The position numbers and the translations under genes are program-made. Source: an uncultured virus (IMG/VR IMGVR_UViG_3300044612_002233) (lineage: Duplodnaviria; Heunggongvirae; Uroviricota; Caudoviricetes). From it: a stretch of DNA of 58,027 nucleotides. The notes under the pieces were generated by a model. It was not told the origin of the DNA. It did not search any database and worked only from the letters and a program-made list of their open reading frames with translations. Of the stretch, positions 29,262 to 46,910 are shown one piece after another (the stretch's first letter is position 1; each line of letters starts with the position of its first letter). The stretch lies in IMG/VR virus record IMGVR_UViG_3300044612_002233, positions 62,001 through 120,027 of that record, one strand, 5' to 3'.

Positions 29262-32200
29262 TTAGGTTCTCATTGGGCGATTATTGGCTGCAGTGTTTAG
29301 ATTACCTTCAAATTGTGATCTGTCATATTTTGCCATAGTGTTTTGACTAGTTTGACTACCAGCTAATTGTCCTGCTTGTGCTGCACTACTTACTATTCTA
29401 TCTCCTTCTTTTCCTAATCCTGTAAAATCAACAACTTGTCGCCCAGTAACTTCTGCTGTTAATGATGTTGGTATTTGACTAGCAGTCTCTGACCAAGTAT
29501 TTGCTGAACTAGCAATTGTTTGTGAAGCACTAGCGAATGTTTGGCCGAAATTATTTAATGTTTCAGTACTACTTTGCATCATTTGACTATATGTTTCCAT
29601 TCCTGATTGGAGTGCGGTGCTTAGTTGGTTCATGGCCTGTCCTACTGCAGCACTAATACTAGACGATATATCATTAGATACACCACTACTACCACTACTA
29701 CCGCCACTACCTCCACTAACTAGTCCAGCTGCAGCATAATATTTGGGTGCAACTATTCCACCATTGGCCAAATAGTTAACAATTCCACCTCTATTGAAAT
29801 GGCCACTATTTATAGCATTAAGTAGAGGCATATGCTGCTGACTAGATTCTCTGTTAACAACAAATTCTCCAGGAGTTAGCATGGCTGGTACAGTATCTGT
29901 TCCCTGAGATAGATAAGGTATTAATGCTCCATTATTAGCATATACTATACCACCCTTATTAAATTTTTGTATTCCTAATTTATGTAATTTTTCAATAATT
30001 TCTGGCGTAACTTCATCGGCTGGGATATTATATATTTCCGTTGATTTAGCTCTAAGACTTGGACCTCTAACATGGATTCCTCCTTGTGAATCAAACTCAT
30101 AAACAGGTTTACCAGTATCTTCTACCTGGGCGTGGGCTTTGGTTTCAAACTTTTCTAATGATCTCTTACCAGTTTTAGGATCAATAATAGCACCTTCAAA
30201 ACCACTATAGTTGACATATTTATTATCAACACTCGTGGTTGATCTACCTGTTCCGACTCCTCTAGACTGTTTATAAGAATTACTCAATCTACCATAAGCT
30301 TCAGCTGATTCTATGAGATCTGCTGGCGCATTTCGCATAGATCCATATGTTCTAAATTGATTTGGTATGCCAGCTTCTACAGCACTTTTCCATAAAGGAT
30401 CACTCTCATCATAATAAGATTGTCCCAAACCAGTCTTTTCTATTTCAAAAACTCTCTTACCTTCATCTATTTGTGCTTGATAAAGCATAGTGTTTCTAGT
30501 CTTTAATAATTTATCAATTTCTTCTTTTTTACTAACTCCTTTTTTAAGTCCAAACCAACTATCTGGCTTTTCTTGAGATCTTAGAGATGCTATTTGAGCA
30601 TCAAGTTGTGCTAGTTGTTTATTTGCAGTAAGAGATGCTGGGGTCTTAGCTTGGTTGACTCCTGCTATAAAATCATCAAACGTAGCTTTGGATGCTGCTA
30701 ATCTCGCTTCACGTTCTGCTATTCCTCTTTTTGTAATTGGAGTGTCTAGTAGGTCTGCTTTCATTGGATTATAAAGACCAGGGCCTTGTTTGTGTTTTCC
30801 TGTTCTCCTAACACCCGGAATAACCATTTGAGCATTCTCACTCCCGGCTATCGGGCGCTCCTTTGATACTTTCGGATCATATGTTCTAAGACCATCAGGA
30901 AATTGCCTGGCCTCTTTTACATCACGAATTAGTTTTAGATCAAAATCGTTATACCCTTTATCAAATTTCGCATATAATTGTGTCATCAGATCATCAGAAT
31001 TTAATCCGGAGTCTACTAGATACCTGGTTACATCATCGTATAGTGAGCTGTACGAAAGGTGGCTTGGACCTTTGGTTGTATTTTTATCTATATATCTTGT
31101 AAAAAAACTATCTAAAGTTTCTTGCGCTTTAGTGTCTAAATTACTATTTTTAATAATACCTCGCATAGCAAATGCGCTCTCTTCTGCATTACTGGAGAAA
31201 GGCTTCATCCTAGCCTCTCTGGCTGCTTGCATTTGAGCTTTTTGACCAGATGTCATGCTCTCAAGCTCAGCTTTTTGCATTTTTGCCAAGCTTTGTCTTT
31301 CAGCCTGTCTGCTTGATCTAACAGAAGCTCTACTTTGTTCTCTTAATTCCGCTTTACTGGGTGCTTTTTTAGTTGATTGTGTTGCTGTTGCGGTTGATGC
31401 TGTTGACTTCGCTTTGGTTCCAGCGGGCGCCAAATCAGCAAAAGAAGATTGTGCAAATGGTACGACTTGTCCTTTTACTTTTTTGGTTTTCCAAACCGAT
31501 AATAAACGATCTGGAGACGGACGAACAATTGTACCATCTTTTAATCTAATACCATTTTTTAATATCGTATCATATTGAGATAGTGAATCTGGATCGCTAG
31601 CCAATTCAACTATTTTATTTAATCTTGCTTGTAGTTCAGCTGATCCTCCTAAATCAGGATGTGTAAACTTATTATATTTTCTTACTAGATCACGAACCCC
31701 TTGCGAAGTTAATGGTGTTCCTGGTTGAACTCCTAGTATATCATATACTGATGATTCTGATGAAGATAATTTGGATAAAAATTCTTCTTTACTCATTTCT
31801 TTAGCACTATCAATAGCACTTGATGCTTTTCCTGCTTTTGATGGAGTTGTGGACGATTTAGCGTCCGCTTTTGCTGCCGCCGCATCAACTTTCGCTCTAT
31901 CTGCTGCTTCTTGTTGTACTTTAGCAGCGTCTTTTGCTCTCGTTTTGGCAGCAGCATCGTCTTGCATTTTAGCAGCATCGGCTTTTGCTTTTGCAGCAGC
32001 GTCTGCTTTAACTTTTGCAGAAGCGTCTGCATCTGCTCTGGCTTTATTAACCGATTCAGCTTGTGTCTTAGATGAATCAAGTTTAGCTTTGGCGTCTGCA
32101 TCTGCCTTAGTTGTGGTTCTTAAACTATCGTCTACCGATCCGCTTCCTGGGGTGGCATCAGGAACTTGACCCTTTCTTGGCTGAACATAGACAGTGGATG

Positions 32201-35200
32201 GTCTTTGTGGTGCAGCATTTACTGTTGGATCGTACCCTAGTGCTTGCTGAGTTTGTCCTGGTCTTGGCTTAACATAAATAGTTCCTTGTTTTGCATTCTT
32301 AACTGACGCGGCTGATGCTGCTGTATTTGTTGGGGCGTATTTTGTTGTTGGATTAACTCTTGGCTTAGCCCAATCTGGAACAATACCCTTAACCCCCAAC
32401 ACATCACCCATTTGAGTAGCAACATCTTGAACACCTTCAACGAAATTATCCACTCCTGCTCTAACGGCACGACCAGCAGACCTAAACGGAGCAGCCGCTG
32501 TGCTTGTTGCTCTGGGGAACGCACCAGAAATGTACGAACCCATTTCTCTAACATCTCCAGCAGCCTGAGCGGCTCCTCCTACAACATTATCCACGGTTGC
32601 TCCCACACTTCTAGCAAATCTACCAGCCCCAGGTAATCTTCCGACAGTATTTCCTGCTGCTCTTCTTGCTATTCCAGCGCCAGAAGAAACGACTCTTCCA
32701 GCAGCACCACCAATCCTACCGGCGGCATTAAATACCGCTCCTTCAGCATTAATTAATGCTCCTGCGCCTTGAGAGGCTGCATATCCAGTAGTTTGCGCAA
32801 ATGCTGTACCGAAGCCTAAATAACTATCCATACCACCAGCTAGTTGCACATTTCTAGCATCATTGCGTTGTAATGCAGTTTGCTCACCGGTTTGTATCGG
32901 TCCCATACCAGCAACAGCTTGCCCAGCTTCAACAAAACCCATTGCTCCAGCACCCATAGCATTAACACCAACTTCAGCAGCCGCTCTTGTTGCTGCAGAA
33001 TAAGCTCCTGGTTGATTATTTAGTCTTTCACTGTTTGCTGTAGCTGCTCTTGCTCTTATAACAGCAGCATCTTGAGCAGCCGCTATCTCTTGAGGCGATG
33101 GCATTGGTCTGCCATTAGCTCTAGCCTCATCATACATATTTTCTGCTGTTCTATTTCTTAAATTATTCTCATCCCCAATTTTAAAGGCTGTATCATCTCC
33201 AGACATAGCATATCCAATACCTCCAACAATAGGAGATGCAACTGTTGCAACTGCTCCGGCAGTTATATTTGCTGCCCCATAAAGAGCGTCTCCAATACCC
33301 TGAGTTACTCCTCCAACATATCCTGCTGCTGCTATAGCAGGATTACTGCTATTTATATATAATGATGCTTGTCTATCTTCTTCAGCTTTTTGTTGTTGTG
33401 CTCTAACCTTTTCTGCCGCACTAACTTGTTGAGCCCCCTCAAATTGCGCTATCGCTTCACTATTAGCTTGATCCTGTAATAATTGTTCGGTTGTTGGAAC
33501 AACATAATTTTCAAGTTTTTCCATATATGGTTTTGGCATATATTTTCTTTGTTCAGTCCTGTACTGTTCTCTTTGATCTTCTTTAACCTTTCCTTCACTA
33601 AGAAGTTGATTAAATTTATTGTCTATTTTACCTGTTTGTTCATCTAATTTAGCTTGATTTCTTTCATTGATTACTTGTTGTCTTCTTCCTTTTTTATATT
33701 TTTCTCTTTCTTCTGGATCATCTTCCATTGCATAAGTATTAGGATCTTTGCCTGATCTAGACGCTTCTAACTTCTGGTTAAATTCAACATCAAATGCTTG
33801 TTCTTGAGCTGCTATTTGTGCTCTTTTTTCTATTCCTATTTTTGTGCTAGTAATAGCACTATCTGCTTCTCTCTTTTTCTTCGTGTCGCTTGAAGTTGTA
33901 GCCGTTTGAATTGAAGAAGATAATCCTGGACTAGCAGTTATTCTATAAACATTTTGTGTTTCTGCTTTTGCTCGTATGTTTGGATCATTACTATATTCAT
34001 ATGGATCTGTAGCGCCAACAGATTGATAAGAATTTATTTGACTATTCGGCTTAAACAACTGATTTGGATACTTTATCATTGTCTCAGTCGCTAGTACATT
34101 TGATGGTGAACCAAGAGGAAAGTCAAACCAATCTCTGCGTGAACTTTCTCTATCTCTAACTGTTTTCTGAGACTCAAACCTTGGAGTATTAGGATCGCTT
34201 CCATATGTATAATTTCTTCCAGCAACATAATCTCCAGGTAATGACACCCTAGGACTTGGAACCATTGGACCATTATTCACACCTAATCTTCCATCCTCAT
34301 TTTTAATTTCTGGTGTTCTCAAATTAACAGAAGTATTAGTCTGGGTTGCTTGTTGAGTTTGCTGGGCCTCATAAGCTCTATTATCTGCTATGCGTCTAGT
34401 TAAACCAAGTAAAGGATCTCTTGTTTTATATTTTGGATCATTTGGATCTGGCTTTTGTAAAGGCTTATTGGTAGTATATTGTTGTGTAAATCCTGATTCG
34501 ATTACAGCATTTTGCTCGGCAGCCTGTTGCTCATTGCTTGGTCTTGAGTAGCCTTCATTTATTCTGGAGGCCATTGCTGGATCAACAGAGCCAGGTTTTC
34601 CTCCGTTGCTAGTTATTGGAGGCAACGCACCAATAAATGATAGAGCGCGTAGACTTCCTCTATTTCTACGATCAGAGCCTAACTCTTTTAGAGCCGATCT
34701 TTCTTCTGGCGTTATCTCATTAGACTGAGCACCTTTACGATAGGCACTATTTACTAAAGAAGAAATATTACGATCTTTTTCTACAGTATATGGACCGACC
34801 TCTCTTTTTATTTGATTAGATTTTAAGGTTGCATATTCTGTTTCTTCTTCTGAGCTTCTTCCTTTGCTTCCTTTAAGCCACAATGATCGTCTTCGTAACT
34901 CTTCAGATTTGATCTTTTTCTTCTCATTAATAGCTTCTTGAGTGGGTCTAATTTTTGTTGTTGTTCCTCTGCCCCATGGAACAACTTCTGCTTTTACTAA
35001 AGGAACTGGTAGCGATGGTTGAACGACAGATGTGGTATAGCTCATATCTGGCTTAATATCGCTCTTGGCCACTTGTGCCTCTTTGGCCTTAACCTCTGCT
35101 GTTTCTCTTGCGGTTTTGGCAGGATTTTCCACAGGCATTGGTTGACTATTAGTATTAGCACTTACATTTTCAGCTTTTAATCTATCTGCTGCTAATTTCC

Positions 35201-38200
35201 TTTCTCTCTCTTCTATTCTGACCATATTAGCTTGAGCCCTAGCTTCAAAATCGGGCTTAGCTTGTTCAGCAGCCATTCTTTCAGTCCAATTAACTCCATC
35301 TTTATGAAACTCCATACCTGATCCTGGACCATATCCTATTGCTTCTTCCGGAATACCAGCCGCTCTATATGCGTCATTTACCGCATTACTAGCCATTCTG
35401 CCCATATTAGTAGAATTAGGTTTATTTTCCACCAGATCCAAATCGTTAATGATGCTACGATCTGTTGTGGCCGAAGAGTCCCCCATATTTGCCTGAACAG
35501 CATATCCTTGATTTCTATTCATATCTATCTGACCAAGGCGTTGTTTTTCTTCTGGGGTGCTATATCTTTCTCTTCTGTCTCTCATCGTTCCGCTATGGTC
35601 TATTCTAGCATTCATAGCTATCTGAGTTTCTTTCCAAGTATCCTTATAATTACCAGGATTATATGAGTAATCAGTTATAACACTATTAACTCCTTCTTTT
35701 TCTTTATCTATCAGTTCCTGTTTCTGCTTATCGTCAAGTTGATCCCAAGCACCACCTACTCTGCCCGTAACCATATCGGTATTATTTTCTAATCTTCTTC
35801 TTGCTCTGGATTCAGCATAATCGGCCACGTAAGCATTTTTGTCTTCATCTGTTGACCAATTGCCAGATACAGAATCTAAGGTAGATGCCACAAAATTCCT
35901 GGTCCCAGCATTAATTTCAGCATCCACTAATTCTCTACCAGTTGCTTCATCAGATGCTCTTTCCTTACTATCTGAACTATTATATGATCTAGTTCTAGAC
36001 TCTATATTTCTATTTATCTGTGTTGCTTCCTCTCTTTCAGCATCTAATTTACCCTGTACATCTGCTCTGGTTCTGGGTTTGGCTACTTTTCCTCCATCTG
36101 CTAAATAAACTACTCCGCCCTTACTATAATTCCCACTATTAATAGCTTTCAATAATGGCAAGTGTTCTGCTGTTGATCTTGCATTAATAACAAACTCGCC
36201 CGGAGTTAACATGGCAGGAACAGTGTCGGTTCCTTGTGGTTGGAAATTTACTAATTGACCTTCACTAGCATAAATTAATCCTCCACGAGCCTTCGGAGGA
36301 GCAACTGGAGCAGCAACAGCTACTCCCGGATTAACTACTTTCTGTCCAGCAGCATTAACTCTACCCTCATTCATATCATTATTAAGCATACTAGCTTCAA
36401 TAGTTGTTCTAAGATCATCTATACTAACTTTAAGGTTAGCATTTGCTGATACTAGAGCCTGCTGAGATTCTAATAGAGCCAATTCTCCTTGTGCCTTAGT
36501 AGCATCAGCTTGTAATCCAACAGACTGTAAATATTTGCTAGAAGCTTCTTTCATTGCGGGATCAGCATTAGGATCTTCCATAGCGGCTATTGATTGTCTA
36601 ACAAGCGGATTATTCATCATTCCGCTCTCTATCGCCATACTCTTTGTTAATTGTATTTGTTGTTGTTTGAAATAGTCAGCAACAGCTTGATCGGCGCTTA
36701 CTCCTGGCTTTCCTTTGCCTTGAGCATATTGATTTCTTATATTTAATTCTTGAGCAGCTCGTACTCCAGGATCTTGTGATAAGGCCAAAGTTTCTTTTCT
36801 TTGATTGGCTAATACTGTATTACCAGCCTTGGTGGCTTCTCTTACACTTCCTGTTTCTCTTAATGTTTGATTAAATGCTTTACGAGCATCTCTTTGATTA
36901 CTGGCATTGTTTAATCCTCCAGAAAGATTTCGTTGAAGTCTTATGAATGTTTTATTAAGTTTATCAGCTTCTTCTGGGGTGTTAGTTAATAGCTGATTAA
37001 CAAAACTTTCTCTATTCTTCTGAAGCTCTCTAACATTCTTTAAATTGTCAAATGCTTTTTCTACTAATTCTGTACTAGTAGCTAATGTATCTAAAGCTTC
37101 TCTGGTATCTCTTAGTTGATCATCTAATGATCTTAGTTGTTCAGCAGACTTTTTAAGCTCATTAGGATCACTAATACCCTGTCTTTTTTCTTCTACAGCC
37201 GTTCTCTGTGCTTGTAAACCAACCATTCTATTCTGAATGCCGCGAACAGTCGTTTCTCCACCAGCTAATTTGGACACATCCCCCATAACTCTTGCTTGTT
37301 TCTCATCATAAGTTTCACCAACGCCCGTCATAACCTCTCTAAGATTCATATCTCCTTGAACTCTAATATCTCTAGCTTTCTTAAAATAGTTCTGAGCATC
37401 TTTTGCTGCTTTACTAGCATCCTTAAGACCTTCAGAGAAATCGGCTAATGCCCCTTGTTTAAACGATGATAGGGCCTTTACTGCTTCAAGCGTTTTGACT
37501 CCAAAAGCCCCAAGAATATTATCAGACTCTCCTAATCCTTCCCTAAAAGCATCTAATTCTGCTTGAGGCGTATCATTTTTTTTCTTAGCTTCTTCTGCTA
37601 AATTATTTATTCTTGTTTCTGCTTGTTTTTTAAGACTTGTCTTTTGTTCATCTGATAAGTTTGTTTTATCTATTTTTTCATTAGTAATTTTAATAGCCTC
37701 TGCCTTGGCTTCGTCAACTCCCAAACTTCCCTTGGTACTTAATTTATCTGCTATACTTTTTGTTATAGCATTAGGTAATTGTTGTTGTAATTGCGCTCCT
37801 CCTATTAACTGATTTCTAGTTTTTTCATCAACTCCTGCTGTAGCTGATTTTAGAGCATCATTAAAGTCTTGTTCAGAATAGGCGTTTGGATTTTCAAGAA
37901 CATTTAATTCTCTTAGCTTTGGACCACTATCTTCTGATTGTCCTCTTAATGCTGATCTGCTTTTTTCTGCCGATGATTTTCTAACATCCGATTCGAATTT
38001 TATTCTATTAACAGATTCACTAACAATACTTGATAATTTTTCAAAACTAGCTGCTAGTTTTCTACCAGCTTTATCCGCCGCCTCTAAAGCATCAGACATC
38101 TGTTTTGTCTTTATTGCAGATTGGACTTGAACATTGGTCAGTATTTTTTCATTAGCAACTTCATCTAATATAGCATCTTGTCTTTGTTGTGAAACCTTAT

Positions 38201-41200
38201 CATATCCACCTTCTGATATTATTCTTGCTCTAACCGTTTTAAGAGCATCTTCATCTGCTAATACTAATGCTCTTCTAGCCCCAATTAATTCTTTATCTGC
38301 TTGTATAGATTCTACACTAGCTCCAGTATTAATTTTTTGTGATATTAAAGCAAATGCCTTATCCCCACTATCAGCATTTCTTTCTGCTTGTTTACTAGCT
38401 AGTTCATTAACATCCTGAACATCCATCTTCGGCTTTTCTGCTCCGGATAGAAACTGTGTCCATGTTCTAGTTAGGCCCTTTTCGTTTTCAGCAACTTTAG
38501 TTTCAGCAGCTACTGCTTTGAGTGAAGATTCTGATGATCTAACAAGAGCCTTATCTAAAGCCTTTTGTAAATCTATATTACCAAGATCTTTCTCAAAATC
38601 CTTGAAAGCCTTAGCTAAATCTTTTTCAGAAGCTGCCACTTCTTCAAATCGTAAATTCTTTTCCATTTCTAGAGCAGCAGTTTTTTGCGCTCCAGTAAAA
38701 TCAAAGGCAGCATCAGCACCGGCATATAAAGCTGTACCTATAGCAACAGCAGCGCCTAGGTAGGGATTGATCGCCATTAACTGAGAGGCAGTAGTTAAAC
38801 CAGTTGCTAGTGTTGAGCCAGTTTTTTCTATGGCCGCACCAGTTTTGGCAGCTCCTACTTTGCCTGCGTCTGTTGAGGTATCATACATTAGATTTGCAAT
38901 ATTTTTTCCTTGTCCACCCACTAAACCAGCAGCCATTCCAACGTCTCCCAAAGCTGTTCCAACGCCTTGAGACGCTGTACCTGAGAAATACCTTCCTTGG
39001 ATGGCCTTTATAATAGGACTGTTTCTAATATCAGTTAAACCAGCGGCCCCAACTCCTTTTTCTCCCTGCTCTTTGGCCATCTCATTAATCATTTCTCTTC
39101 TTTTACTAACTTCTTCCTTAGCAAGAGCAAGTGCTTCTGATGCTGATTTGACTGAGACACCTCTAACAGTTCCAGCATTCTTATACTCTTCTAATCTCAT
39201 TGCAATAAGCTGCTTGTCCATCTGAGCTAATGTTTTACGATCAGTCATAGATTGAGAAACATAACTTTGAATATCAGCTCCACCAATGCCCATACCTGAA
39301 AGTTCTGATCTTTTAATTCCAGTAACTTTTTCTGTGGCTGATGCGAATGCCTGCTCTTTAATTTGTCTTTGTTCTTTTTCTAATCTTCTATTAGTTCTTC
39401 GTTCTAGTTTATCTTTGTCTCCTAATAATGATGGATCTTTTTTGATTAAATCTTTTTCTATTTGTGATTTTCTTTGCGCTGTAATTAATTTTTCTTTTTT
39501 CTCGGCTTCTGTTAAAATAGCTTGCTGGGCACCACCCGAACCAAGAACTTTACCTGTTTTTGATTCTTTTAATCCTGCTTCTAAAAATTGTCGTTTTACT
39601 ACTGCTGTTTTAGCTTGATCTCTAACGGCTTTTAGGGCTTTTTCTGCTGCTATTATAGTGTCTATTGATGCTCCGGTAATCTTGAGTCTTTCAACATCCT
39701 TAGTCATTGCCCTTTCAATATCTTTATAAGATATGTCGGCTCCTGCCCCCACTTGCTCAAGAATTTTCTTAAAGCTTATCATGCTATAACCAGCTTCTTC
39801 AAAACCTTGTGCTAATAATTTAACGTTATTAAATAGTTCAGATGAAGCTTCTAAGCTTTTACTATCAATAGTTTCTGGTCTAGTTTTTAATTTTTGAACT
39901 GCTGGTTCAGCAAGACCTTTTAATCCTTGCATTATTGCTTCAATACTAAAAACACTACCACCAGTAGCAAATCTTTGAATTACTCCTCCACCAACTACTC
40001 CGCCTTTATTATAACCCTGTATTTTATCTGCTTTATTTAGTTTTTCTAACTTACCATATCCAATATTTTGAGCAGCTTTTTTATTAATTACAAATTCGCC
40101 AGGAGTTAATAATGCAGGAACAGTGTCTTGAGATGATATTCCTGCTTGTCCTCCGTTGGCAAAAGTTTCGATATTGGTTGGTTTTAAAGGATTAGAACCA
40201 GTATACTTTAATGCTAATCCTAGTGGACGTTTAAATAATTCACTTTCAAATGAATTTATTAATTCGGGATCTCCACTTTGGAGTCTATTCATTATTTGAC
40301 CAAGAATCTCACCTTCTCTTATGTTAGAATCTCCACCAGCATATAGTGCTTTTCTTGAGCCTTCTGCTGATTGTACTTTTATACCTGCTGACATTACTCC
40401 CTTAGATGCATCTTTTGCTATAACATCTCTAATTCCGGCCAATCCCTTTTCTTTATCAGGAGCTGCCTTATCTTTTATCTTATCAAAATTATCATAAAGC
40501 CATTGTGTAACAAGATTCTTTTGAAGTTCATAGTCTAGGTCATAAGTTTTTGGATCTAAAATTTCATCAAAACTTAATACCATTGGTTTGCCTGATGTAT
40601 CACCACTAGTAACTGTAAATCCGCTTCCTCCTCCAACTCTCATTTTGGCTTGTTGTTCAGCTTTGTTCTTTTCTGTATATAGATAGAATCCAGCACCTTG
40701 ACCATATCCAGTAGCAATATTACTTAATGCTCCCTTTTCTTTAAAGCTTTTTAGCACACTATCATCAACACCAGTGTTGCTTCCATGATATAGTTTAGTC
40801 TTTCCTCCATCAGCAAACTGTTGTACTTTCATACCCTCAATATGTCTAATATCACCACCCAATAGTTTATCTTCTTGATCTTTACTGATTATTCTATCAA
40901 TATCGTCAATTCTGAATTTTGAAGTTGGTGGCAGAATAAATTCTTTTTCTATTCTTGTCGCTGATCGACTTCTACTTAAATAATCTGCTCCGCTTTTGCC
41001 AGAAACAGGATCGATGTATTTTGATAAAGCTTTTATAACATCATCTTCTGTAGAAGTATCAAATATTGTCTTGTCAACATCAATAGATGGAATATTTTTA
41101 TTTCTAAAGATACTCAACATTGCACTAGAGCCATTTTCTGGCTGAAATACAGCAGCGGTATCTGGAGATTCACTAGTAGATAATAATGATCCATTTAAAT

Positions 41201-44200
41201 TAAAGCTTTTACCAATAGCATCAGGAATATCTTTATTAGAACTTAATGGATTACCTATCTGAGTTAAGATGGTTTTTAATTTACCTCCAGCAACAGTAGA
41301 ATATAGTTTACCAGAACGCTTTGAGCCACTCATTGATTCTTTACTATTAAACATTTCCAATAAATCTTTTGCAGCATTCTTTGTAGCGTCATACGCTTTG
41401 GGCGGATCAGCATGGAAAGTTTTAAGATATTCCATGAAAGAATCATTATCTTCTAAATACCTATTTATAAATTCACTATCAGTTCCACCACCAGGAAATG
41501 GTCCTGTTCTGTATTTGGCTAATGAGACTAGTTGTTGTGGGGAATATACTTCTCCACCATCAACATATCTTTTCATCGGTCTAAGCCCAGGATCTGGTTC
41601 ACCTTTTAGCATTTCAGCAAGAATTTGCTGTCGAGGTGTTGGATCTGATAATGTTTCTGGAGCTAATAATGAAGAGAAGTCTGTTTTAACGCCAGATAGG
41701 GCCGCTTTGCGTGCTCGTCTTTTTTCTAGCATCTCCTTGAATTCTTCAAGATTTAGACCAAAGGTTTTTGCATCTCTCGCCAAACTATTAAACTCTAAAG
41801 CACTGAATCCACTACCTTGTTCTAGAGAAAAATAGTCTACTTTAGATTTTGGAATGTCAAATGGAGATGGACCAATAGGTTCTTTTGAGAAAGTAAACCT
41901 TCTAGATGCTTTACCTCCACGAGCCAATTTTTGTGGTTGTTCTAATTCTTTTGGTTCGGGAATACTGTATTGTTGTCTAAAATATTTTTGAAATTCTTCA
42001 ACAGCCTTGCCTCTACTATTACTATCTATTGTTCTTTTAACTTCTGTTGGAATATCAGGATCGATACCAAATATTTTTGCTGCTTTAGATCCAATACCCA
42101 TTGGAAAGTCAATCGGACGAGTTCTTAAAGCATCGTCTAATATTGTAGCATCTGCTGATCCAAAAATTTGTTCTAGTAAAGCGCCTTCAATATTACCCTG
42201 ACCTAATGTTTCTCTTTGTTTTTTGGTTAATTTCTTTGCAGATATTCCAAGAAGTTTGGCTGCTCCACCTACAATTTCTTCTGTTTGACCACTAAGATAA
42301 TCAATGACATTTTGATATTGTGTTGGTAATCCTCTTTGAACTATTGATGCGTCTATTGATCTTTCTTGGCCAGACGGATCGACTCCAAGATTCCAAGTCT
42401 CTGGACCTAATAATCCAGTATATCCTAGCGGATTTAAGCCAACTAATCCTAATTGTTTAGACGATAATACGGCATTAGTTGTTTCTGCTAGTGCTGTGGC
42501 CTTTTGAGTTCCTTGTGATTCATTAAATTTATCTATTAGATAGTCTCTTGTTGCAATATAGTAGGCGAGCTTGTCTGCTTTTGTTTCTGGTCTAAAGGCA
42601 GAATTCCAATATTTTAATTTTCCACCATCAGCAGTATCTCGTACTGTTTTTCCTGAGAATGGACCAAAACTTGGATCGTTTGGTAGTCTTTCTGTTCCAA
42701 ATCTTTTTAGAATCTCTGATCCTTGTGCTGGTAATATTCCAGAAGACTTTTTGACCTGCGTGGCCTTTTCTACATTTTTTAGTATCGCCTCTTCTAGTCC
42801 AGAAGGCATCTCTGTTGGAACTCCACCAAACTCACCAGCCATCTGTTCTGAAATTTGTGCTGATATGGCCTCTCTGGTTATGTCTGATGGTTGCGCAGAT
42901 ACAGGGGATTTTCTTGATGGGTCTAACCCATAAGTTTCTGGATATTTCGCAGATAGAGCGCTTATTATATTAAATGCTCTATAGCCAAATGCTCCTTTAG
43001 ATACTCGATCTCTTTTGTCTCTTATCTGCTTAACTTGCTCAGCTATTTCTGGATAATTTTTCTTTAGATCAGCACTAACATTACCATATGGACCACCAGG
43101 AGCATTTGATAATATTTCTGCAACCTCAGCATTGGATCGTACTTTATCTTGATCAACAAACTTTTGTATTTCTTCGATGAGCATAGGAACCATAGTGCTA
43201 CGATTACGTAATTGTGCTCTATTGCCCATTAATATTGATGCTATATCAGGATTCATTAAACTAGTAAGTGTTTTATCATCACCATTGAATAATGCGTCTC
43301 TAACTGCAGTAGCACTAATATCTTCTATTCTGGGAATATCTGTAACATCTATTCCTGCTCTTTGGTATTTGCCTAATGTTTTATCGTCTTTACCAGAAGT
43401 TATTGCCATGGCGCCTTTTAATCTGGCGAATTTTCTTCTATCTCCAGCATCAGTAACTTCCATAAATTTTGGTAAACCACCAGCAGTCTGGCTTTGAGTG
43501 CTAATCATGGCATTTCCAAAATTCATTTGGCTGAATAAGGTTCTTATATCTGATGGGAAAATACCATATCGTGCAGCGTGGTCTATACCTTCTTTACCAA
43601 CAATCATTGGAAGATCAGGAGCAACACTAACAAGAATATCTTCTAAAGAAGAGTTTGGGTTTTTTGCTAACATGTTTTCTAATAAAGTATCTAACGCTCC
43701 TCTATGGCCTCTTGTTGGTGGGGCAAAACCACCCATATAAAATCCACCAGCCTGAACTATTTCTGGTAGTTCGCTTTCTCTTTTACGTCTTAAACCGAAA
43801 CTATCTTTTTTTCTTCCTAATACTGTGGCTCTTTTGCCAAGTTCATCTCGTAATATGGTTTCTTCCAGACCAAAATCAATATCAGCTGCTCTTGTGGTTC
43901 CTGGTTTACGACCATACAATCCTTCTCCTGTAATATCTCTGCTCTCTCTATTTGACCTAACTCTATCTTGTTCCTCTCTGCTATTAGAGCTTAATACATA
44001 TGCTCTATCAACATCTTTTAAATAAGCATCTAATTTAGTCTGACTAGCTGTAGATGTTAATACTATAACCTCATTAACTTTGTTTATATCTTCAGGCGTT
44101 AATATTTGAGAGCGAATTGTTTTTCTTAAAGTAGCATCATCATTAGCTCCCTTTCCGGTTGCTAAACTGCTTTTTCCACTTCCAGCAGCTCCAGCAATAG

Positions 44201-46910
44201 CTCTAAACCTAGATAGCGATCCACTTTTTCTAGCATTGCCTGCCAATTCTCCAAGTTTTGTTGTATAGTCACTAACATCAGTTATTCCAAGCTTTTCCAT
44301 TGCTGGCCTAACTATCGCCGCATTAGCTTCATCTCTTAGTACATCCGTATCAACTACTCCAATTTTTCTTTCTACTTTTCCTCCAACCATGAACTTAGCC
44401 AATCCTTTAGTCTCTGTCATTTTTTTAGTAAAATCACTGTCTTTGATTGTTTTTAGAAGACGGGCTCTGTTTTGTCTTATATTACCTAAACTATCAAATC
44501 TGTCCTGAGACTCTTCTGGCATATAGTTAAACATATAATCATCTTTAATAACCCTATCCCATGATGACTTATTGGTATTGCCAAATCCTGAATTTTTCTT
44601 CATTATCTCTAGTCTATTTGCTAGCTTATCTGCTTGAATAATATCTTGACCTTTTTTAGTTCCACTATATTTTGCAACATTCTCTCCTACTAATTTTTTA
44701 TTAAGAGCACCAATTTCCGCCATTGGTCTGCCATAGTAATCTACTTTATTAGCGTCGATAAAAATTTTAGCTAATTTTTCTTTACCAAGTCCACTTATAA
44801 AATCTATAGTTATATCTTTGGCTCTTTTGCCTTTCTCTCTATTACTAGCATATGCCGGACCTTTTCCTCCTTGACTAGCATACTCTTCTCTTTCTTTTTT
44901 TGATGCTTTAATTTCAAAAGCATCTATTCCTTCAAGTCTAGATGTGACTTTAAATTTACCTTTTTCACTAGGATAAATTAAATCGCCAGTTAGTTTTTTA
45001 AAACGTTTATTAACTAGTGTTTGTGTTGGATCAACCAATAAATTTATACTATCTGCATCATAAGCTTTGAGCCTACCAGCATACTGCTTGTTAGACTTAG
45101 AATATTCTTGAACATCAATATCGTCATATAGTTTACCTCCATTACCGAATCTTTTTCTTCTATTTGATTTTCCTGCTCGTATACTTCCACCACTTCCATA
45201 CTTATTCATACTATGAAGATTATCAGCACCAATAGTTTCAACAGCTTTCTTTCGTATCACAAATTCTCCTGGCTCTAACATTGCCGGAACAGTATCTCCA
45301 CTACCAGTGCCTGGAACAACACCTCCTCTTGCGAATTTTCTAATTACTCCACCATTAGCTTTACCGTCTGGTCCTCTTTTAACTCCAGTACTAAAACCAC
45401 TAGCAAATTGAGTTAAAGCTTTAGCTCCTTTAAATGCTGTTATAATAGCAAGAGCTGGTAATATTCCTTTAATAGCATCTGTAACTTTAATTAGTCCACT
45501 AGCTAAACTTAAAGCTCCTCTTATTAATGACTGAAATCCTTTTGATTGTCCTATTTCTCTGAATAAGGCAAAAAACTCTTGTCTTACTTTGCTAATTTGA
45601 TTTGCTAAAGAAAGTTGTGCAGTTGCGGCGTCTTTTGCTAGTGATCCTTGTCCAGCTTGGGCGGTCTTTAATGCTTCTTGGGCAACTGTGAACTGCTGAA
45701 TAAGTGGGATAACTTTACCAATTTGTCGGAATCCACCAAGTTCTTCAACTATCTTGGAAAACTGTAAACTTCTTGGGTCAATTCCGCTCAATCCTTTACT
45801 TAATAATTCAACAGCTTTATAGGCTCCTACGAATTTGCCCTCAGTATCGGTTAGATTAACTCCAAACTCTTTCAGAGCATCTATTGTGCCTCCTCTCTGA
45901 ATACGAGTAAAAATTGTTCTTAAGCCAGTAGAAATAGTTTCAGCACTTTCACGAGTAGTAGCACGAACACTGGTAAAAACTGCAATAAATTCATTTAAAG
46001 CATCCTTACCTTCGCTAACTCCCTTACTTGCTGTTGCGAATACGCTACCCGTTCTTTGAACAGCAGTAATAATGTCAGAAGACTCAACAGCGAATCTGGC
46101 AGCAACAGTATTTACAGCACCTAATGCTCCTTCTAAATCATCTGCACTAATACCAAACTGTCGCATCAATGCGATACTTCCTTCTACTGTCTCATTCATG
46201 TCATCAAAAGACGGAGCCAAACTACTTAATGCTAAAGCTCTTAACGCTTTTTCTGTTTCTCTTGCGCTTAAACCGGCCTGTGCTAATGTAGAAGCAACAG
46301 AGGTCAAATCTTTAGAGCTAACGCCAAATGTTGTTGACAGATTTGTAATTTGATCTTGTAGTTTAGCAAGACCTGATGATGATTCTCCAGTAACTTGTTG
46401 TAATTTAACTAATTCTTTATCATAATCAATAAACGCTTGAACACCCTGACTAATACTATTAGTAAGTCCATATATAACACTAGTAACAGTACTAAATGCT
46501 ACGAATCTTCTGATAGCAAGACCAGCCTGTTTACCGAACTCTTGCATCTCTGCTGATGCTGATCCAAGATCTTTTGCTGATGAGGATGATGCTTTATTAA
46601 GTTTATTAACAGCATTAGCTGCTGCATTTATTTGTTGTGGAATATTATTTACTTTAACACTATTTATACTATTGCCAAAAGCTTTGATAGCTGCTGCAGC
46701 AGAAGTGGCGGCTGTCGTTGTTGAACCAAATGTAGCATTTAATGTCTTAAGAGACGAGGACAAAGCCGCAACATTTTTAGTTACAGCAGGATCAAGCTTA
46801 AAAGTAACATTCGCATTAATATTACCAAGATCTTTTTTAATTTGTGCAGCAATTTGCTTTACATTTGTTGGTCCTTGTAAATTAAGTTGTGCAGTTAGGT
46901 TGAATGCCAT
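29262..46910 (-). CDS. Giant tape measure protein (5882 aa) carrying multiple putative enzymatic cargo domains
   Basis: N-terminal TP901-like TMP core (FIDYDKELVKLQQVTGES...STLAQAG...AARFAVESSDI...GLRTIFTRI), long Ala/Lys/Glu helical tracts and hydrophobic segments (~38705-38815). It follows the tube and chaperone genes and has an AGGA SD. Confidence 0.92.
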   Translation of the reverse strand: MAFNLTAQLNLQGPTNVKQIAAQIKKDLGNINANVTFKLDPAVTKNVAALSSSLKTLNATFGSTTTAATSAAAAIKAFGNSINSVKVNNIPQQINAAANAVNKLNKASSSSAKDLGSASAEMQEFGKQAGLAIRRFVAFSTVTSVIYGLTNSISQGVQAFIDYDKELVKLQQVTGESSSGLAKLQDQITNLSTTFGVSSKDLTSVASTLAQAGLSARETEKALRALALSSLAPSFDDMNETVEGSIALMRQFGISADDLEGALGAVNTVAARFAVESSDIITAVQRTGSVFATASKGVSEGKDALNEFIAVFTSVRATTRESAETISTGLRTIFTRIQRGGTIDALKEFGVNLTDTEGKFVGAYKAVELLSKGLSGIDPRSLQFSKIVEELGGFRQIGKVIPLIQQFTVAQEALKTAQAGQGSLAKDAATAQLSLANQISKVRQEFFALFREIGQSKGFQSLIRGALSLASGLIKVTDAIKGILPALAIITAFKGAKALTQFASGFSTGVKRGPDGKANGGVIRKFARGGVVPGTGSGDTVPAMLEPGEFVIRKKAVETIGADNLHSMNKYGSGGSIRAGKSNRRKRFGNGGKLYDDIDVQEYSKSNKQYAGRLKAYDADSINLLVDPTQTLVNKRFKKLTGDLIYPSEKGKFKVTSRLEGIDAFEIKASKKEREEYASQGGKGPAYASNREKGKRAKDITIDFISGLGKEKLAKIFIDANKVDYYGRPMAEIGALNKKLVGENVAKYSGTKKGQDIIQADKLANRLEIMKKNSGFGNTNKSSWDRVIKDDYMFNYMPEESQDRFDSLGNIRQNRARLLKTIKDSDFTKKMTETKGLAKFMVGGKVERKIGVVDTDVLRDEANAAIVRPAMEKLGITDVSDYTTKLGELAGNARKSGSLSRFRAIAGAAGSGKSSLATGKGANDDATLRKTIRSQILTPEDINKVNEVIVLTSTASQTKLDAYLKDVDRAYVLSSNSREEQDRVRSNRESRDITGEGLYGRKPGTTRAADIDFGLEETILRDELGKRATVLGRKKDSFGLRRKRESELPEIVQAGGFYMGGFAPPTRGHRGALDTLLENMLAKNPNSSLEDILVSVAPDLPMIVGKEGIDHAARYGIFPSDIRTLFSQMNFGNAMISTQSQTAGGLPKFMEVTDAGDRRKFARLKGAMAITSGKDDKTLGKYQRAGIDVTDIPRIEDISATAVRDALFNGDDKTLTSLMNPDIASILMGNRAQLRNRSTMVPMLIEEIQKFVDQDKVRSNAEVAEILSNAPGGPYGNVSADLKKNYPEIAEQVKQIRDKRDRVSKGAFGYRAFNIISALSAKYPETYGLDPSRKSPVSAQPSDITREAISAQISEQMAGEFGGVPTEMPSGLEEAILKNVEKATQVKKSSGILPAQGSEILKRFGTERLPNDPSFGPFSGKTVRDTADGGKLKYWNSAFRPETKADKLAYYIATRDYLIDKFNESQGTQKATALAETTNAVLSSKQLGLVGLNPLGYTGLLGPETWNLGVDPSGQERSIDASIVQRGLPTQYQNVIDYLSGQTEEIVGGAAKLLGISAKKLTKKQRETLGQGNIEGALLEQIFGSADATILDDALRTRPIDFPMGIGSKAAKIFGIDPDIPTEVKRTIDSNSRGKAVEEFQKYFRQQYSIPEPKELEQPQKLARGGKASRRFTFSKEPIGPSPFDIPKSKVDYFSLEQGSGFSALEFNSLARDAKTFGLNLEEFKEMLEKRRARKAALSGVKTDFSSLLAPETLSDPTPRQQILAEMLKGEPDPGLRPMKRYVDGGEVYSPQQLVSLAKYRTGPFPGGGTDSEFINRYLEDNDSFMEYLKTFHADPPKAYDATKNAAKDLLEMFNSKESMSGSKRSGKLYSTVAGGKLKTILTQIGNPLSSNKDIPDAIGKSFNLNGSLLSTSESPDTAAVFQPENGSSAMLSIFRNKNIPSIDVDKTIFDTSTEDDVIKALSKYIDPVSGKSGADYLSRSRSATRIEKEFILPPTSKFRIDDIDRIISKDQEDKLLGGDIRHIEGMKVQQFADGGKTKLYHGSNTGVDDSVLKSFKEKGALSNIATGYGQGAGFYLYTEKNKAEQQAKMRVGGGSGFTVTSGDTSGKPMVLSFDEILDPKTYDLDYELQKNLVTQWLYDNFDKIKDKAAPDKEKGLAGIRDVIAKDASKGVMSAGIKVQSAEGSRKALYAGGDSNIREGEILGQIMNRLQSGDPELINSFESELFKRPLGLALKYTGSNPLKPTNIETFANGGQAGISSQDTVPALLTPGEFVINKKAAQNIGYGKLEKLNKADKIQGYNKGGVVGGGVIQRFATGGSVFSIEAIMQGLKGLAEPAVQKLKTRPETIDSKSLEASSELFNNVKLLAQGFEEAGYSMISFKKILEQVGAGADISYKDIERAMTKDVERLKITGASIDTIIAAEKALKAVRDQAKTAVVKRQFLEAGLKESKTGKVLGSGGAQQAILTEAEKKEKLITAQRKSQIEKDLIKKDPSLLGDKDKLERRTNRRLEKEQRQIKEQAFASATEKVTGIKRSELSGMGIGGADIQSYVSQSMTDRKTLAQMDKQLIAMRLEEYKNAGTVRGVSVKSASEALALAKEEVSKRREMINEMAKEQGEKGVGAAGLTDIRNSPIIKAIQGRYFSGTASQGVGTALGDVGMAAGLVGGQGKNIANLMYDTSTDAGKVGAAKTGAAIEKTGSTLATGLTTASQLMAINPYLGAAVAIGTALYAGADAAFDFTGAQKTAALEMEKNLRFEEVAASEKDLAKAFKDFEKDLGNIDLQKALDKALVRSSESSLKAVAAETKVAENEKGLTRTWTQFLSGAEKPKMDVQDVNELASKQAERNADSGDKAFALISQKINTGASVESIQADKELIGARRALVLADEDALKTVRARIISEGGYDKVSQQRQDAILDEVANEKILTNVQVQSAIKTKQMSDALEAADKAGRKLAASFEKLSSIVSESVNRIKFESDVRKSSAEKSRSALRGQSEDSGPKLRELNVLENPNAYSEQDFNDALKSATAGVDEKTRNQLIGGAQLQQQLPNAITKSIADKLSTKGSLGVDEAKAEAIKITNEKIDKTNLSDEQKTSLKKQAETRINNLAEEAKKKNDTPQAELDAFREGLGESDNILGAFGVKTLEAVKALSSFKQGALADFSEGLKDASKAAKDAQNYFKKARDIRVQGDMNLREVMTGVGETYDEKQARVMGDVSKLAGGETTVRGIQNRMVGLQAQRTAVEEKRQGISDPNELKKSAEQLRSLDDQLRDTREALDTLATSTELVEKAFDNLKNVRELQKNRESFVNQLLTNTPEEADKLNKTFIRLQRNLSGGLNNASNQRDARKAFNQTLRETGSVREATKAGNTVLANQRKETLALSQDPGVRAAQELNIRNQYAQGKGKPGVSADQAVADYFKQQQIQLTKSMAIESGMMNNPLVRQSIAAMEDPNADPAMKEASSKYLQSVGLQADATKAQGELALLESQQALVSANANLKVSIDDLRTTIEASMLNNDMNEGRVNAAGQKVVNPGVAVAAPVAPPKARGGLIYASEGQLVNFQPQGTDTVPAMLTPGEFVINARSTAEHLPLLKAINSGNYSKGGVVYLADGGKVAKPRTRADVQGKLDAEREEATQINRNIESRTRSYNSSDSKERASDEATGRELVDAEINAGTRNFVASTLDSVSGNWSTDEDKNAYVADYAESRARRRLENNTDMVTGRVGGAWDQLDDKQKQELIDKEKEGVNSVITDYSYNPGNYKDTWKETQIAMNARIDHSGTMRDRRERYSTPEEKQRLGQIDMNRNQGYAVQANMGDSSATTDRSIINDLDLVENKPNSTNMGRMASNAVNDAYRAAGIPEEAIGYGPGSGMEFHKDGVNWTERMAAEQAKPDFEARAQANMVRIEERERKLAADRLKAENVSANTNSQPMPVENPAKTARETAEVKAKEAQVAKSDIKPDMSYTTSVVQPSLPVPLVKAEVVPWGRGTTTKIRPTQEAINEKKKIKSEELRRRSLWLKGSKGRSSEEETEYATLKSNQIKREVGPYTVEKDRNISSLVNSAYRKGAQSNEITPEERSALKELGSDRRNRGSLRALSFIGALPPITSNGGKPGSVDPAMASRINEGYSRPSNEQQAAEQNAVIESGFTQQYTTNKPLQKPDPNDPKYKTRDPLLGLTRRIADNRAYEAQQTQQATQTNTSVNLRTPEIKNEDGRLGVNNGPMVPSPRVSLPGDYVAGRNYTYGSDPNTPRFESQKTVRDRESSRRDWFDFPLGSPSNVLATETMIKYPNQLFKPNSQINSYQSVGATDPYEYSNDPNIRAKAETQNVYRITASPGLSSSIQTATTSSDTKKKREADSAITSTKIGIEKRAQIAAQEQAFDVEFNQKLEASRSGKDPNTYAMEDDPEEREKYKKGRRQQVINERNQAKLDEQTGKIDNKFNQLLSEGKVKEDQREQYRTEQRKYMPKPYMEKLENYVVPTTEQLLQDQANSEAIAQFEGAQQVSAAEKVRAQQQKAEEDRQASLYINSSNPAIAAAGYVGGVTQGIGDALYGAANITAGAVATVASPIVGGIGYAMSGDDTAFKIGDENNLRNRTAENMYDEARANGRPMPSPQEIAAAQDAAVIRARAATANSERLNNQPGAYSAATRAAAEVGVNAMGAGAMGFVEAGQAVAGMGPIQTGEQTALQRNDARNVQLAGGMDSYLGFGTAFAQTTGYAASQGAGALINAEGAVFNAAGRIGGAAGRVVSSGAGIARRAAGNTVGRLPGAGRFARSVGATVDNVVGGAAQAAGDVREMGSYISGAFPRATSTAAAPFRSAGRAVRAGVDNFVEGVQDVATQMGDVLGVKGIVPDWAKPRVNPTTKYAPTNTAASAASVKNAKQGTIYVKPRPGQTQQALGYDPTVNAAPQRPSTVYVQPRKGQVPDATPGSGSVDDSLRTTTKADADAKAKLDSSKTQAESVNKARADADASAKVKADAAAKAKADAAKMQDDAAAKTRAKDAAKVQQEAADRAKVDAAAAKADAKSSTTPSKAGKASSAIDSAKEMSKEEFLSKLSSSESSVYDILGVQPGTPLTSQGVRDLVRKYNKFTHPDLGGSAELQARLNKIVELASDPDSLSQYDTILKNGIRLKDGTIVRPSPDRLLSVWKTKKVKGQVVPFAQSSFADLAPAGTKAKSTASTATATQSTKKAPSKAELREQSRASVRSSRQAERQSLAKMQKAELESMTSGQKAQMQAAREARMKPFSSNAEESAFAMRGIIKNSNLDTKAQETLDSFFTRYIDKNTTKGPSHLSYSSLYDDVTRYLVDSGLNSDDLMTQLYAKFDKGYNDFDLKLIRDVKEARQFPDGLRTYDPKVSKERPIAGSENAQMVIPGVRRTGKHKQGPGLYNPMKADLLDTPITKRGIAEREARLAASKATFDDFIAGVNQAKTPASLTANKQLAQLDAQIASLRSQEKPDSWFGLKKGVSKKEEIDKLLKTRNTMLYQAQIDEGKRVFEIEKTGLGQSYYDESDPLWKSAVEAGIPNQFRTYGSMRNAPADLIESAEAYGRLSNSYKQSRGVGTGRSTTSVDNKYVNYSGFEGAIIDPKTGKRSLEKFETKAHAQVEDTGKPVYEFDSQGGIHVRGPSLRAKSTEIYNIPADEVTPEIIEKLHKLGIQKFNKGGIVYANNGALIPYLSQGTDTVPAMLTPGEFVVNRESSQQHMPLLNAINSGHFNRGGIVNYLANGGIVAPKYYAAAGLVSGGSGGSSGSSGVSNDISSSISAAVGQAMNQLSTALQSGMETYSQMMQSSTETLNNFGQTFASASQTIASSANTWSETASQIPTSLTAEVTGRQVVDFTGLGKEGDRIVSSAAQAGQLAGSQTSQNTMAKYDRSQFEGNLNTAANNRPMRT
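31566..31752 (-). other. J-domain (DnaJ-like) within the TMP
   Basis: SVYDILGV...RKYNKFTHPDLGGSAELQARLNKIVELASDPDSLSQYD carries the Y.ILGV, HPD and SDP....YD hallmarks. Confidence 0.85.
40170..40800 (-). other. His-Tyr clade (PARP/diphtheria-toxin-like) ADP-ribosyltransferase-like domain within the TMP
   Basis: TKLYHGS...SFK...GYGQGAGFYLYTEKNKAEQQA. Confidence 0.68.
40830..41550 (-). other. VIP2/C3-like (R-S-E clade) ADP-ribosyltransferase-like domain within the TMP
   Basis: KLYSTV (the expected Arg position holds Ser), LLSTSES and IEKEFILPPTSKFRI. Confidence 0.7.
41960..42460 (-). other. Putative PD-(D/E)xK restriction-endonuclease-fold domain within the TMP
   Basis: GNIEGALLEQ (helix Glu), RPIDFP (Asp) and TEVKRT (ExK) appear in canonical order. 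Confidence 0.5.
43270..43750 (-). other. HxGH-class (HUP) nucleotidyltransferase-like domain within the TMP
   Basis: YMGGFAPPTRGH at ~43704-43740 and C-terminal ISATAVRDAL at ~43290-43320 are the two signature motifs of the CoaD/NadD/cytidylyltransferase superfamily. Confidence 0.78.
43800..44220 (-). other. P-loop kinase-like domain within the TMP
   Basis: Walker A AIAGAAGSGKS at ~44169-44200, with a later R-x-x-x-R lid-like helix (RVRSNRESRD). Confidence 0.65.
44660..45080 (-). other. Thermonuclease (SNase-like) domain within the TMP
   Basis: YDADS...RLEGIDAFE...GKRAKD...DYYGRPMA...LNKKLVGENVAKY follows the SNase order DGDT / RL.GIDAPE / G..A / D.YGR.LA / N..LV..G.A. Confidence 0.78.

Follow-up and report, generated by a model that had tools for sequence, protein, structure and literature searches.

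A giant phage tape measure protein, whose tail-length ruler is interrupted at two places by long inserts, was found in a stretch of 58,027 nucleotides (the window), which forms the right arm of the virus record IMG/VR IMGVR_UViG_3300044612_002233 (120,027 bp, G+C 33%; positions 62,001 to 120,027). The source is an uncultured lake-water tailed phage with a genome of ~120-150 kb, and the open reading frame (ORF) at 29262..46910 (minus strand, on which all features of the protein given below also lie) is translated without a stop into its tape measure protein of 5882 residues. Copies of a peptide box flank both inserts, and the first insert is an array of enzyme-like cassettes that relatives exchange at short glycine motifs. 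On balance, we favor the view that the tape measure has been turned into a carrier for enzyme cassettes of the polyvalent-protein type. Two inserts, one of them with swappable enzyme-like modules, suggest by analogy a tail that injects enzymes before DNA.

The original prediction, made from the DNA letters, called the product a tape measure protein, and family searches agree. The N-terminal ruler segment (aa 1-538) contains a PhageMin_Tail domain (Pfam PF10145; aa 185-391, 45738..46358; E 1.3e-27, 97.4 bits against a cut-off of 33.2), and 16 of the 19 PHROGs families matched are annotated as tail length tape measure protein. PF10145 was also found in six of seven whole giant relatives scanned, the seventh missing its N-terminus. 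Among cultured phages, the N-terminal segment comes closest to SPbeta YomI, annotated as transglycosylase or tape measure (25-26% identity, E ~1e-10).

A regular expression finds exactly four DTVPA[ML]LxPGEFV boxes in the 5882-residue protein, the number first reported, at aa 539-551, 2262-2274, 3562-3574 and 5672-5684 (45258-45296, 40089-40127, 36189-36227 and 29859-29897). Downstream of the box, the first two copies share ...KKA..IG...L..LNK and the last two share ...H[LM]PLL.AINSG, so that like units bracket each insert, which bears out the proposed arrangement in two pairs. The inserts, here termed bays, span aa 552-2261 (bay 1; 40128-45257, 1710 aa) and aa 3575-5671 (bay 2; 29898-36188, 2097 aa), and agree with the limits first drawn to ~100 nt. 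The 45-nt cores of the boxes are 69-87% identical as DNA, which indicates that it is the peptide that is conserved and argues against recent duplication.

Alignment with the units of four relatives places each box at the center of an ~80-residue unit, in which GGxIxKFAxGG and a brief turn rich in Gly precede the box, and ~25 residues separate it from KGGxV..[FY]LAxGG. Units 1 (aa 517-597, 45120..45362; GGvIrKFArGG..DTVPAMLEPGEFV..YGSGG) and 2 (aa 2240-2320, 39951..40193) are of type I, and units 3 (aa 3540-3620, 36051..36293) and 4 (aa 5650-5730, 29721..29963) of type II. Unit 4 occupies the position of the single box of ordinary tape measures, where, according to PHROGs, the unit sits near the C-terminus; tblastn placed it 72 times in 70 phage records of GenBank, with few exceptions one copy per record and nearly always in a protein annotated as tape measure. 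A profile of 16 units aligned to lambda gpH at ~733-784 (FATGGFTGTGG...GEFVFTKEATSRIGVGNLYRLMRGYATGGYV; hhalign 85.8%, E 5.4e-6), a likeness that is non-significant by pairwise BLASTP (E 2.1). A hydrophobic, Gly/Ala-rich segment (aa 462-500, 45411..45527) lies just before box 1.

The ruler is formed by the N-terminal segment, a middle segment (aa 2321-3539, 36294..39950, with a hydrophobic stretch at aa 2697-2736; 50-84% identity in relatives) and a C-terminal segment (aa 5685-5882, 29262..29858; 36-74% identity in relatives), ~2020 aa in total. Four full-length proteins, that of the window and three relatives (G001-G003), could be compared; they carry 3-5 box units each, the window protein four. 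Measured to the boxes, the N-terminal, middle and C-terminal parts comprise 538, 1287 and 198 aa in the window protein (ruler sum 2023, total 5882 aa), 539, 1308 and 212 aa in G001 (2059, 5986 aa), 538, 1290 and 200 aa in G002 (2028, 5642 aa), and 539, 1310 and 238 aa in G003 (2087, 4950 aa). Ruler sums differ by 3% and totals by 21% (4950-5986 aa); the C-terminal segment ranges over 198-238 aa, bay 1 over 1466-2102 aa and the span from the third to the last box over 1345-2097 aa. A constant scaffold with variable bays, as originally envisaged, describes the kept ruler and the changing bay content, but not the core of bay 1 (below), which is found in every relative.

In BLASTP comparisons with four full-length or nearly full-length relatives (G001-G004), bay 1 is a mosaic with breaks at a short [FYL]-x-x-G-G motif. 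It is a string of cassettes, each beginning just past such a motif: cassette A (aa 589-842, 44385..45146) with SNase-like motifs; cassette B, the core (aa 843-1662, 41925..44384), present in all relatives fetched; cassette C (aa 1663-1781, 41568..41924), a small module with no fold assigned; cassette D (aa 1782-2031, 40818..41567), an ADPrib_exo_Tox-related ADP-ribosyltransferase (ART); and cassette E (aa 2032-2249, 40164..40817), with an H-Y-E type ART fold. The core starts at a GG that is invariant in ten of ten sequences and ends with ...QQYGIPxP, 5-10 residues and xGG, beyond which five sequences wholly diverge.

Searches at E <= 0.001 returned 99 cluster representatives (50% identity clusters), of which 58 are at least 3000 aa long. 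When high-scoring segment pairs (HSPs) with these 58 giants were mapped, 159 of the 283 HSP ends within aa 560-2300 lay no more than 12 aa from one of seven joints; random joint placement gives 27 +/- 20 and none of 2000 shuffles reached 159, a statistic computed on HSPs from related proteins, which are not independent. The giants were found using the core, and its coverage is inflated for that reason: HSPs over aa 801-1300 occur in 44-58 of the 58, and over aa 1301-1700 in 24-37. Corresponding numbers are 46-54 for the N-terminus, 12-16 for cassette A, 1-2 for cassette D, 5-6 for cassette E, 28 for box 2, 11-38 for the middle segment and 26 for box 4.

Cassette distribution was followed in the giant ORFs of 22 fetched loci, one of which (L024) repeats another (L009) with the same coordinates. 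The core is present in all 22, cassette E in ten loci (nine phages) and cassette A in four loci (three phages). Relatives of cassette C occur only in L044 and L038 (43% identity), elsewhere in their proteins. Cassette D itself is found at one locus (93% identity), and D-like modules with 28-29% identity by BLASTP in L047, L011 and L040, where they lie upstream of the core, as opposed to downstream in the window and L010. In the fragment P0002, a D cassette leads straight into box 2 with no E. The relatives retain the ruler, and cassettes are swapped, lost or reordered at the joints. Outside the family, tblastn of both bays against GenBank phages gave no match at E 1e-5, phmmer of bay 1 against the Protein Data Bank (PDB) gave none, and standalone relatives (30-308 aa) of aa 1700-2262 were limited to two matches.

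The strings that the original prediction named in bay 1 are all present (RLEGIDAFE at aa 658, DYYGRPMAEI at 724, AGAAGSGKSS at 906, GGFAPPTRGH at 1060, STS at 1909, EKE at 1986, LYHGS at 2039 and GFYLY at 2072), and about two-thirds of the domains proposed from them were supported. Modeling and profile comparison gave folds for the nucleotidyltransferase and the ART of cassette E and a likely one for the kinase, but AlphaFold2 (AF2) provided none for cassettes A, C and D. The AF2 model of aa 589-1662, built with 25 aligned sequences, reaches a predicted local distance difference test score (pLDDT) of 80-93 at aa 845-1358, falling to 45-80 past aa 1390, and displays compact alpha/beta domains and no coiled coil at aa 845-1240. 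According to this model, the core comprises a probable zeta-toxin-like P-loop kinase domain (aa ~848-1049, 43764..44369; Walker A AGSGKSS at 906), a HIGH-motif nucleotidyltransferase domain (aa ~1049-1238, 43197..43766) resembling NMNAT and PPAT, and a very conserved C-terminal part.

The kinase and nucleotidyltransferase were both foreseen originally and lie where pLDDT is high. The Walker A lysine is kept in at least 90% of sequences. In the (H/T)xGH motif of the nucleotidyltransferase, GGFAPPTRGH, 25 sequences share the G, P, T, G and H without exception, as they do the I, S, T and R of ISATAVR, and this invariance extends to sequences of only 26-37% identity. ISxTxxR is the second signature of the HIGH-signature nucleotidyltransferase superfamily; a PDB profile aligned the ISATAVR region to MJ0951 (E 0.01), and the modeled domain has a Rossmann-like fold. 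Its only Pfam match is to HIGH_NTase1_ass (14-21 bits, cut-off 26.7), which is likewise the only match, again sub-threshold, in the bays of seven relatives; seven whole giants gave PF10145 and one weak aminopeptidase match. With a kinase and an NMNAT-like domain side by side, as modeled, the core brings NadR to mind, and its product may be NAD+ or another nucleotide. Fold likeness cannot separate NMNAT, PPAT and TmcAL, so the fold alone does not fix the product; identity to NadR, NadM and phage NMNAT-type enzymes is 10-16%, and in the window the kinase precedes the transferase.

The C-terminal part of the core (aa ~1380-1654) is almost invariant even between proteins that are 52% identical. 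It was proposed to be a PD-(D/E)xK nuclease; as no fold can be assigned to it, that reading comes down to the strings E...IDFP...EVK at aa ~1575-1625, and the nuclease is kept as a candidate. The region has no Pfam match and none with the A2 profile against the PDB, and pLDDT is <50 over model residues 1005-1049. For cassette A, the SNase proposal is retained as a lead. Three of its strings are what we take to be SNase signatures, and its best ESM Atlas match is to a PF00565 SNase cluster (0.90; 164 shared features against a guide value of 170), but Pfam gave no SNase match at E <= 10 and the cassette profile found no nuclease in the PDB, only chance ubiquitin rows. The AF2 model has pLDDT <50 in this cassette, where the alignment is only two sequences deep.

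Two ART clades had been proposed, and both assignments stand. Cassette D of the window scores 13.2 bits (E 0.058) against PF03496, for which the cut-off is 23.4, and is tied to this family through its homologs, of which those of L047 (28.6 bits) and L040 (31.9 bits) pass and that of L011 (22.1 bits) falls below. Its motifs read LLSTSES and EKEFILP, and the [ST]S and ExE elements are kept in all five D-type cassettes. Cassette E has an H-Y-E, polyvalent-type ART fold: 38 of 50 VIA rows fall within it, at least 33 of these being ART-fold proteins as judged by their titles, and the BFVD rows are named PolyVal ADP-ribosyltransferase. The elements [YW]HG[ST], GFY[LV] and DLDYE are kept in all 11 E-type sequences aligned; Pfam returned only DUF3990 (E 0.023-0.09, 12.9-14.8 bits against a cut-off of 32.2).

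Bay 2 is of another character. It is hypervariable and mostly polar or low-complexity, with a hydrophobic fraction of 0.13-0.26 compared to 0.25-0.30 for the bay 1 cassettes, and contains a Gly/Ala-rich hydrophobic stretch (aa 4542-4571), a Pro-rich linker and an Ala/Lys/Asp run. In most 100-residue bins only 0-4 of the 58 giants have an HSP; the bin that includes the box 3 unit, at the start of the bay, has 11. Among G001-G004, parts of bay 2 are shared only by G002 (aa 3938-4870, 65%) and G003 (aa 3960-4199, 60%). A J-domain-like module (aa 5054-5120, 31551..31751; YDILGV...HPD...YD) was assigned here in the original prediction; the HPD is present (FTHPD, HPD at aa 5082) and the alignment to PF00226 is full-length (model positions 2-63 of 63), but its score of 18.8 bits (E 0.0018) lies below the cut-off of 27.8. 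In phmmer searches of the PDB, bay 2 matched a DnaJA2 fusion (E 0.39) and one chance entry only, and ESM Atlas gave no usable match for aa 5125-5671. With only this sub-threshold module in a polar, low-complexity background, the description of bay 2 as a magazine of enzymes is not upheld.

In the relatives searched, the only counterpart of the J module is a J-like string (YKNLGL...TNHPD) at aa ~2695 of the giant tape measure P0040, a quite different position; J-domains may on this account be a recurrent cargo cassette. Over 30001-36000, the G+C content is 0.385-0.423 against 0.33 for the genome, probably driven by the Ala/Gly-rich composition of bay 2.

No cysteine occurs among the 5882 residues of the tape measure, whereas the other ORFs of the phage contain 1.2-1.6%; at those rates the chance of finding none is ~1e-32 to 1e-41. 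All of G001-G004 are likewise free of cysteine, as are 51 of the 58 cluster representatives of at least 3000 aa, nearly all of which start with MAxxFNLTA. As a separate observation, the opposite extreme lies a few genes away, in a 904-residue protein (16584-19298, minus strand) with 34 cysteines (37.6 per 1000 aa) and purple-acid-phosphatase-N and fn3-like matches.

An artefact, by which a chimeric contig or several genes were read as one, must be considered for an ORF of this size, all the more as the boxes are repeated, metagenome contigs break there and a few contigs link box to box (29898 to 39958 in runs X3, X5 and X8). We regard it as so improbable as to be negligible. The sequence or part of it is present in 20 runs from 19 studies, nearly all labelled lake water; no RNA dataset was among the sequencing runs that hold it. 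Eight contigs listed for run X3, which is not flagged as a possible source, show 0-3 differences apiece; they take in most of the ORF and read across boxes 2, 3 and 4, and a 5452-nt contig of ~98% identity from another study (run X8) extends over 39848-44944, from box 2 into cassette A. The suspicion of a chimeric assembly is thereby answered. The same architecture is seen in 22 IMG/VR loci and six metagenome loci, and both these 22 loci and the 58 long representatives include unbroken giant ORFs (3000-7279 aa) that share its N-terminus. At box 4 (29607-30213), contigs from four lake metagenome runs are 5-10 times deeper than in the flanks, with many differing loose ends concentrated at 29854-29904. 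This seems to reflect a hub shared by many co-occurring relatives or, less probably, a site of deletion variants.

How such a protein might act can be sketched. We infer delivery through the tail from the behavior of tape measures (lambda gpH*, T5 pb2) and from the analogy to polyvalent proteins. The original proposal of such delivery is plausible, and the cargo may have the host-takeover or anti-defense role that it named. The cysteine-free cargo would travel inside the tail lumen, compact but not natively folded, and be expelled with the tape measure before the DNA; cleavage at the joints, like that of lambda gpH within its Gly-rich region, may come first. Refolding would follow in the host, perhaps with DnaK recruited by the J-domain, and the immediate targets might be host proteins, nucleic acids, and the metabolism of nucleotides or NAD. 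A bolder version, which we consider improbable as a whole, sees a programmable chassis whose duplicated joints, of the lambda gpHC type, mark where cargo arrays are loaded and, within the lumen, cut free. Its J-domain would engage host DnaK to draw in and refold the cassettes, and its kinase and NMNAT-like core would rebuild NAD+ or make another nucleotide within seconds, countering NAD-depleting abortive-infection defenses; the variable ART and nuclease cassettes would be exchanged at the G-G joints in an arms race. A Pfam search of 62 left-arm ORFs for a protease that might cut at the joints (clan-CE or other, specific for G-G) identified only a ClpP-like protein (L050:13533-14192).

Several points weigh against the carrier reading. 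Pfam searches with 19 overlapping 600-residue pieces yielded PF10145 alone above cut-off and no enzyme family in the bays of the window, and in bay 2 no enzyme was seen by either Pfam or PDB searches. The first motif expected in R-S-E ARTs is LYRG; the D-type cassettes lack its arginine in five of five cases (LY[SA]G or LYST), and relative P0042 has a degenerate Walker A. The AF2 model of aa 1663-2261 is poor (mean pLDDT 44.9), with no usable fold for cassettes C and D, so that model confidence for the ART fold of cassette E is moderate. Conservation of the bay 1 core in every relative would also suit a structural or assembly role. Short contigs of runs X4 and X5 leap over 6366 nt from 29897 (box 4) to 36264 (box 3), the shorter side measuring no more than 22 letters; they may stem from variants devoid of bay 2 or from other phages, or be artefacts of the assembly graph where the box repeats. 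By our own rough arithmetic, a chain of 5882 aa occupies ~780 nm3 and a 4-nm lumen offers ~12.6 nm3 per nm of tail, or ~3800 nm3 for a tail of ~300 nm (as expected from ~2020 helical residues), so that three copies fill ~60% of the lumen and the six of lambda would not fit, an estimate that cuts both ways. Finally, the presence of the cargo in virions, its ejection, its cutting at the joints and its activity are what we infer by analogy.

Some of these points would suit a ruler for a tail of ~0.9 um, in which the enzyme-like modules are exapted extended spacers with no host role. The tape measure of phage P74-26 is reportedly ~5000 aa long. Tape-measure length normally fixes tail length, and the P74-26 tail is described as nearly 1 um (PMC10034513); the missing Pfam enzyme families, the lost arginine of the D-type ARTs and the degenerate Walker A of P0042 would be in keeping with such spacers. 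Even so, we judge this unlikely. Totals differ by far more among close relatives than ruler segments do, TxGH and ISxTxxR are invariant across distant sequences, the modeled domains at aa 845-1240 are compact rather than coiled coil, and the cassettes are reshuffled as units, a behavior that spacers do not require. Unlikely, too, is a polyprotein serving the producing cell or the head, with the cassettes cut out late and a mature tail made of ruler pieces. It would draw on the homology of the joint unit to the region of lambda gpH that is cleaved in tail maturation, according to the account in PMC12617516, on the tightness of the lumen for full-length copies, and on the ClpP-like protease of this phage. 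Cutting here would be hypothetical, however, and the exact site in lambda is given as undefined in the same account; moreover, cysteine-free cassettes are unexpected for cytoplasmic enzymes of a phage whose other proteins contain cysteine, and there is no evident gain from placing late-acting enzymes within an essential tail gene. Carriage of the cassettes by the tape measure remains the reading that we prefer.

The giant ORF adjoins tail genes in a structural arm in which every large ORF of the window is on the minus strand. Two genes downstream, an 820-residue product (23313-25775) with an fn3 domain has matches to minor tail protein families of PHROGs; the genes upstream of the tape measure have no family match. 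Upstream, a search for the signal of a -1 frameshift chaperone revealed two short overlapping ORFs and no clear -1 slippery site, and the second of these ORFs has its own Shine-Dalgarno sequence and ATG. FGE-sulfatase-type domains are common in tail fibers, and three proteins with such a domain (PF03781) at 9608-12634, 12649-16563 and 25791-29258 (minus strand; 1008, 1304 and 1155 aa) are probably receptor-binding fiber or tip proteins. A 441-residue protein (53172-54497, minus strand) consists of a long Pro/Thr-rich repeat region followed by beta-propeller-like repeats. GC skew is +0.31 at 10001-12000, and between -0.25 and +0.08 in the other 2-kb bins of the window. In the left arm, DNA polymerase III alpha is apparently split (L052:4199-5611 and L052:6445-7275; G000 ~40.2-43.3 kb) into a PHP and N-terminal piece that ends in an intein-splicing-domain match, a separate ORF with the rest of the NTPase domain, and a third ORF with the finger/HHH/OB part. 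Also in the left arm, a 407-residue protein (L050:16138-17358) with a Major tropism determinant N-terminal domain (PF18454, E 1.3e-8) may be the target of a diversity-generating retroelement.

Of known systems, lambda gpH is close in its ruler function and in having a hydrophobic, Gly-rich stretch followed by a FAxGG - GEFV - YAxGG unit near its C-terminus. As described in PMC12617516, gpH loses a C-terminal piece of ~14 kDa (gpHC) by cleavage in a glycine-rich region, binds the hub protein gpI through residues 818-849, is present as gpH* in six copies, and has a weakly predicted membrane-spanning stretch at residues 691-712. This stretch precedes the box unit at ~733-784, just as aa 462-500 precede box 1 of the window protein. 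However, gpH has one unit in 853 aa and no known enzyme activity, in contrast to the four units that bracket inserts of 3800 aa here. Polyvalent proteins, as surveyed by Iyer et al. (2017, PMC5512222), resemble the window protein in that a single very large polypeptide, with its gene among those of the virion, unites several unrelated enzyme domains. Polyvalent-type ARTs and a zeta-toxin-like kinase, a probable one here, feature in both, judging from that survey and from BFVD names, and recombinational cassette variation is among the topics it discusses. The contexts it describes are MuF, portal or N4 virion-RNAP, often with zincin peptidases; Pfam and PHROGs detected no MuF, portal or zincin domain, nor any other peptidase domain, in the window protein, although divergent versions could escape these. 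Neither "tape measure" nor "tape-measure" occurs in the main text of the survey. The chassis differs: theirs is head-associated, whereas here it is a tape measure with cassettes between duplicated ruler joints.

SPbeta YomI and mycobacteriophage TM4 (the latter as cited in PMC12619734) also carry an enzyme domain within the tape measure, but this is one hydrolase acting in the periplasm, in contrast to a multi-cassette array of cytoplasm-type folds (kinase, nucleotidyltransferase, ARTs and J-domain). Sle1-type effectors of actinobacterial contractile injection systems, going by their description in PMC13277306, likewise consist of a tape-measure-derived chassis in a tail-like tube with exchangeable domains; they belong to a bacterial injection system rather than a phage and have a single C-terminal functional domain. 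No account of a cargo-bearing giant tape measure was found in the open-access literature searched (PMC and bioRxiv). In none of the closest systems does a ruler hold arrays of several cassettes flanked by duplicated joints.

Capsids are an established source of injected phage proteins (T4 Alt, N4 vRNAP and MuF fusions), and to our knowledge tape measures carry a cell-wall hydrolase at most. If ~3800 aa of exchangeable, cytoplasm-type enzymes are indeed carried, the tail lumen would be a second cargo hold, tape-measure length would no longer be a simple predictor of tail length, and the purpose of lambda-type ruler cleavage would gain a testable answer, cargo release. The family is large and common in lake metagenomes. 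As it is almost wholly dark to Pfam, it may offer a considerable stock of early-infection enzymes, still unexplored and with cassette borders already defined.

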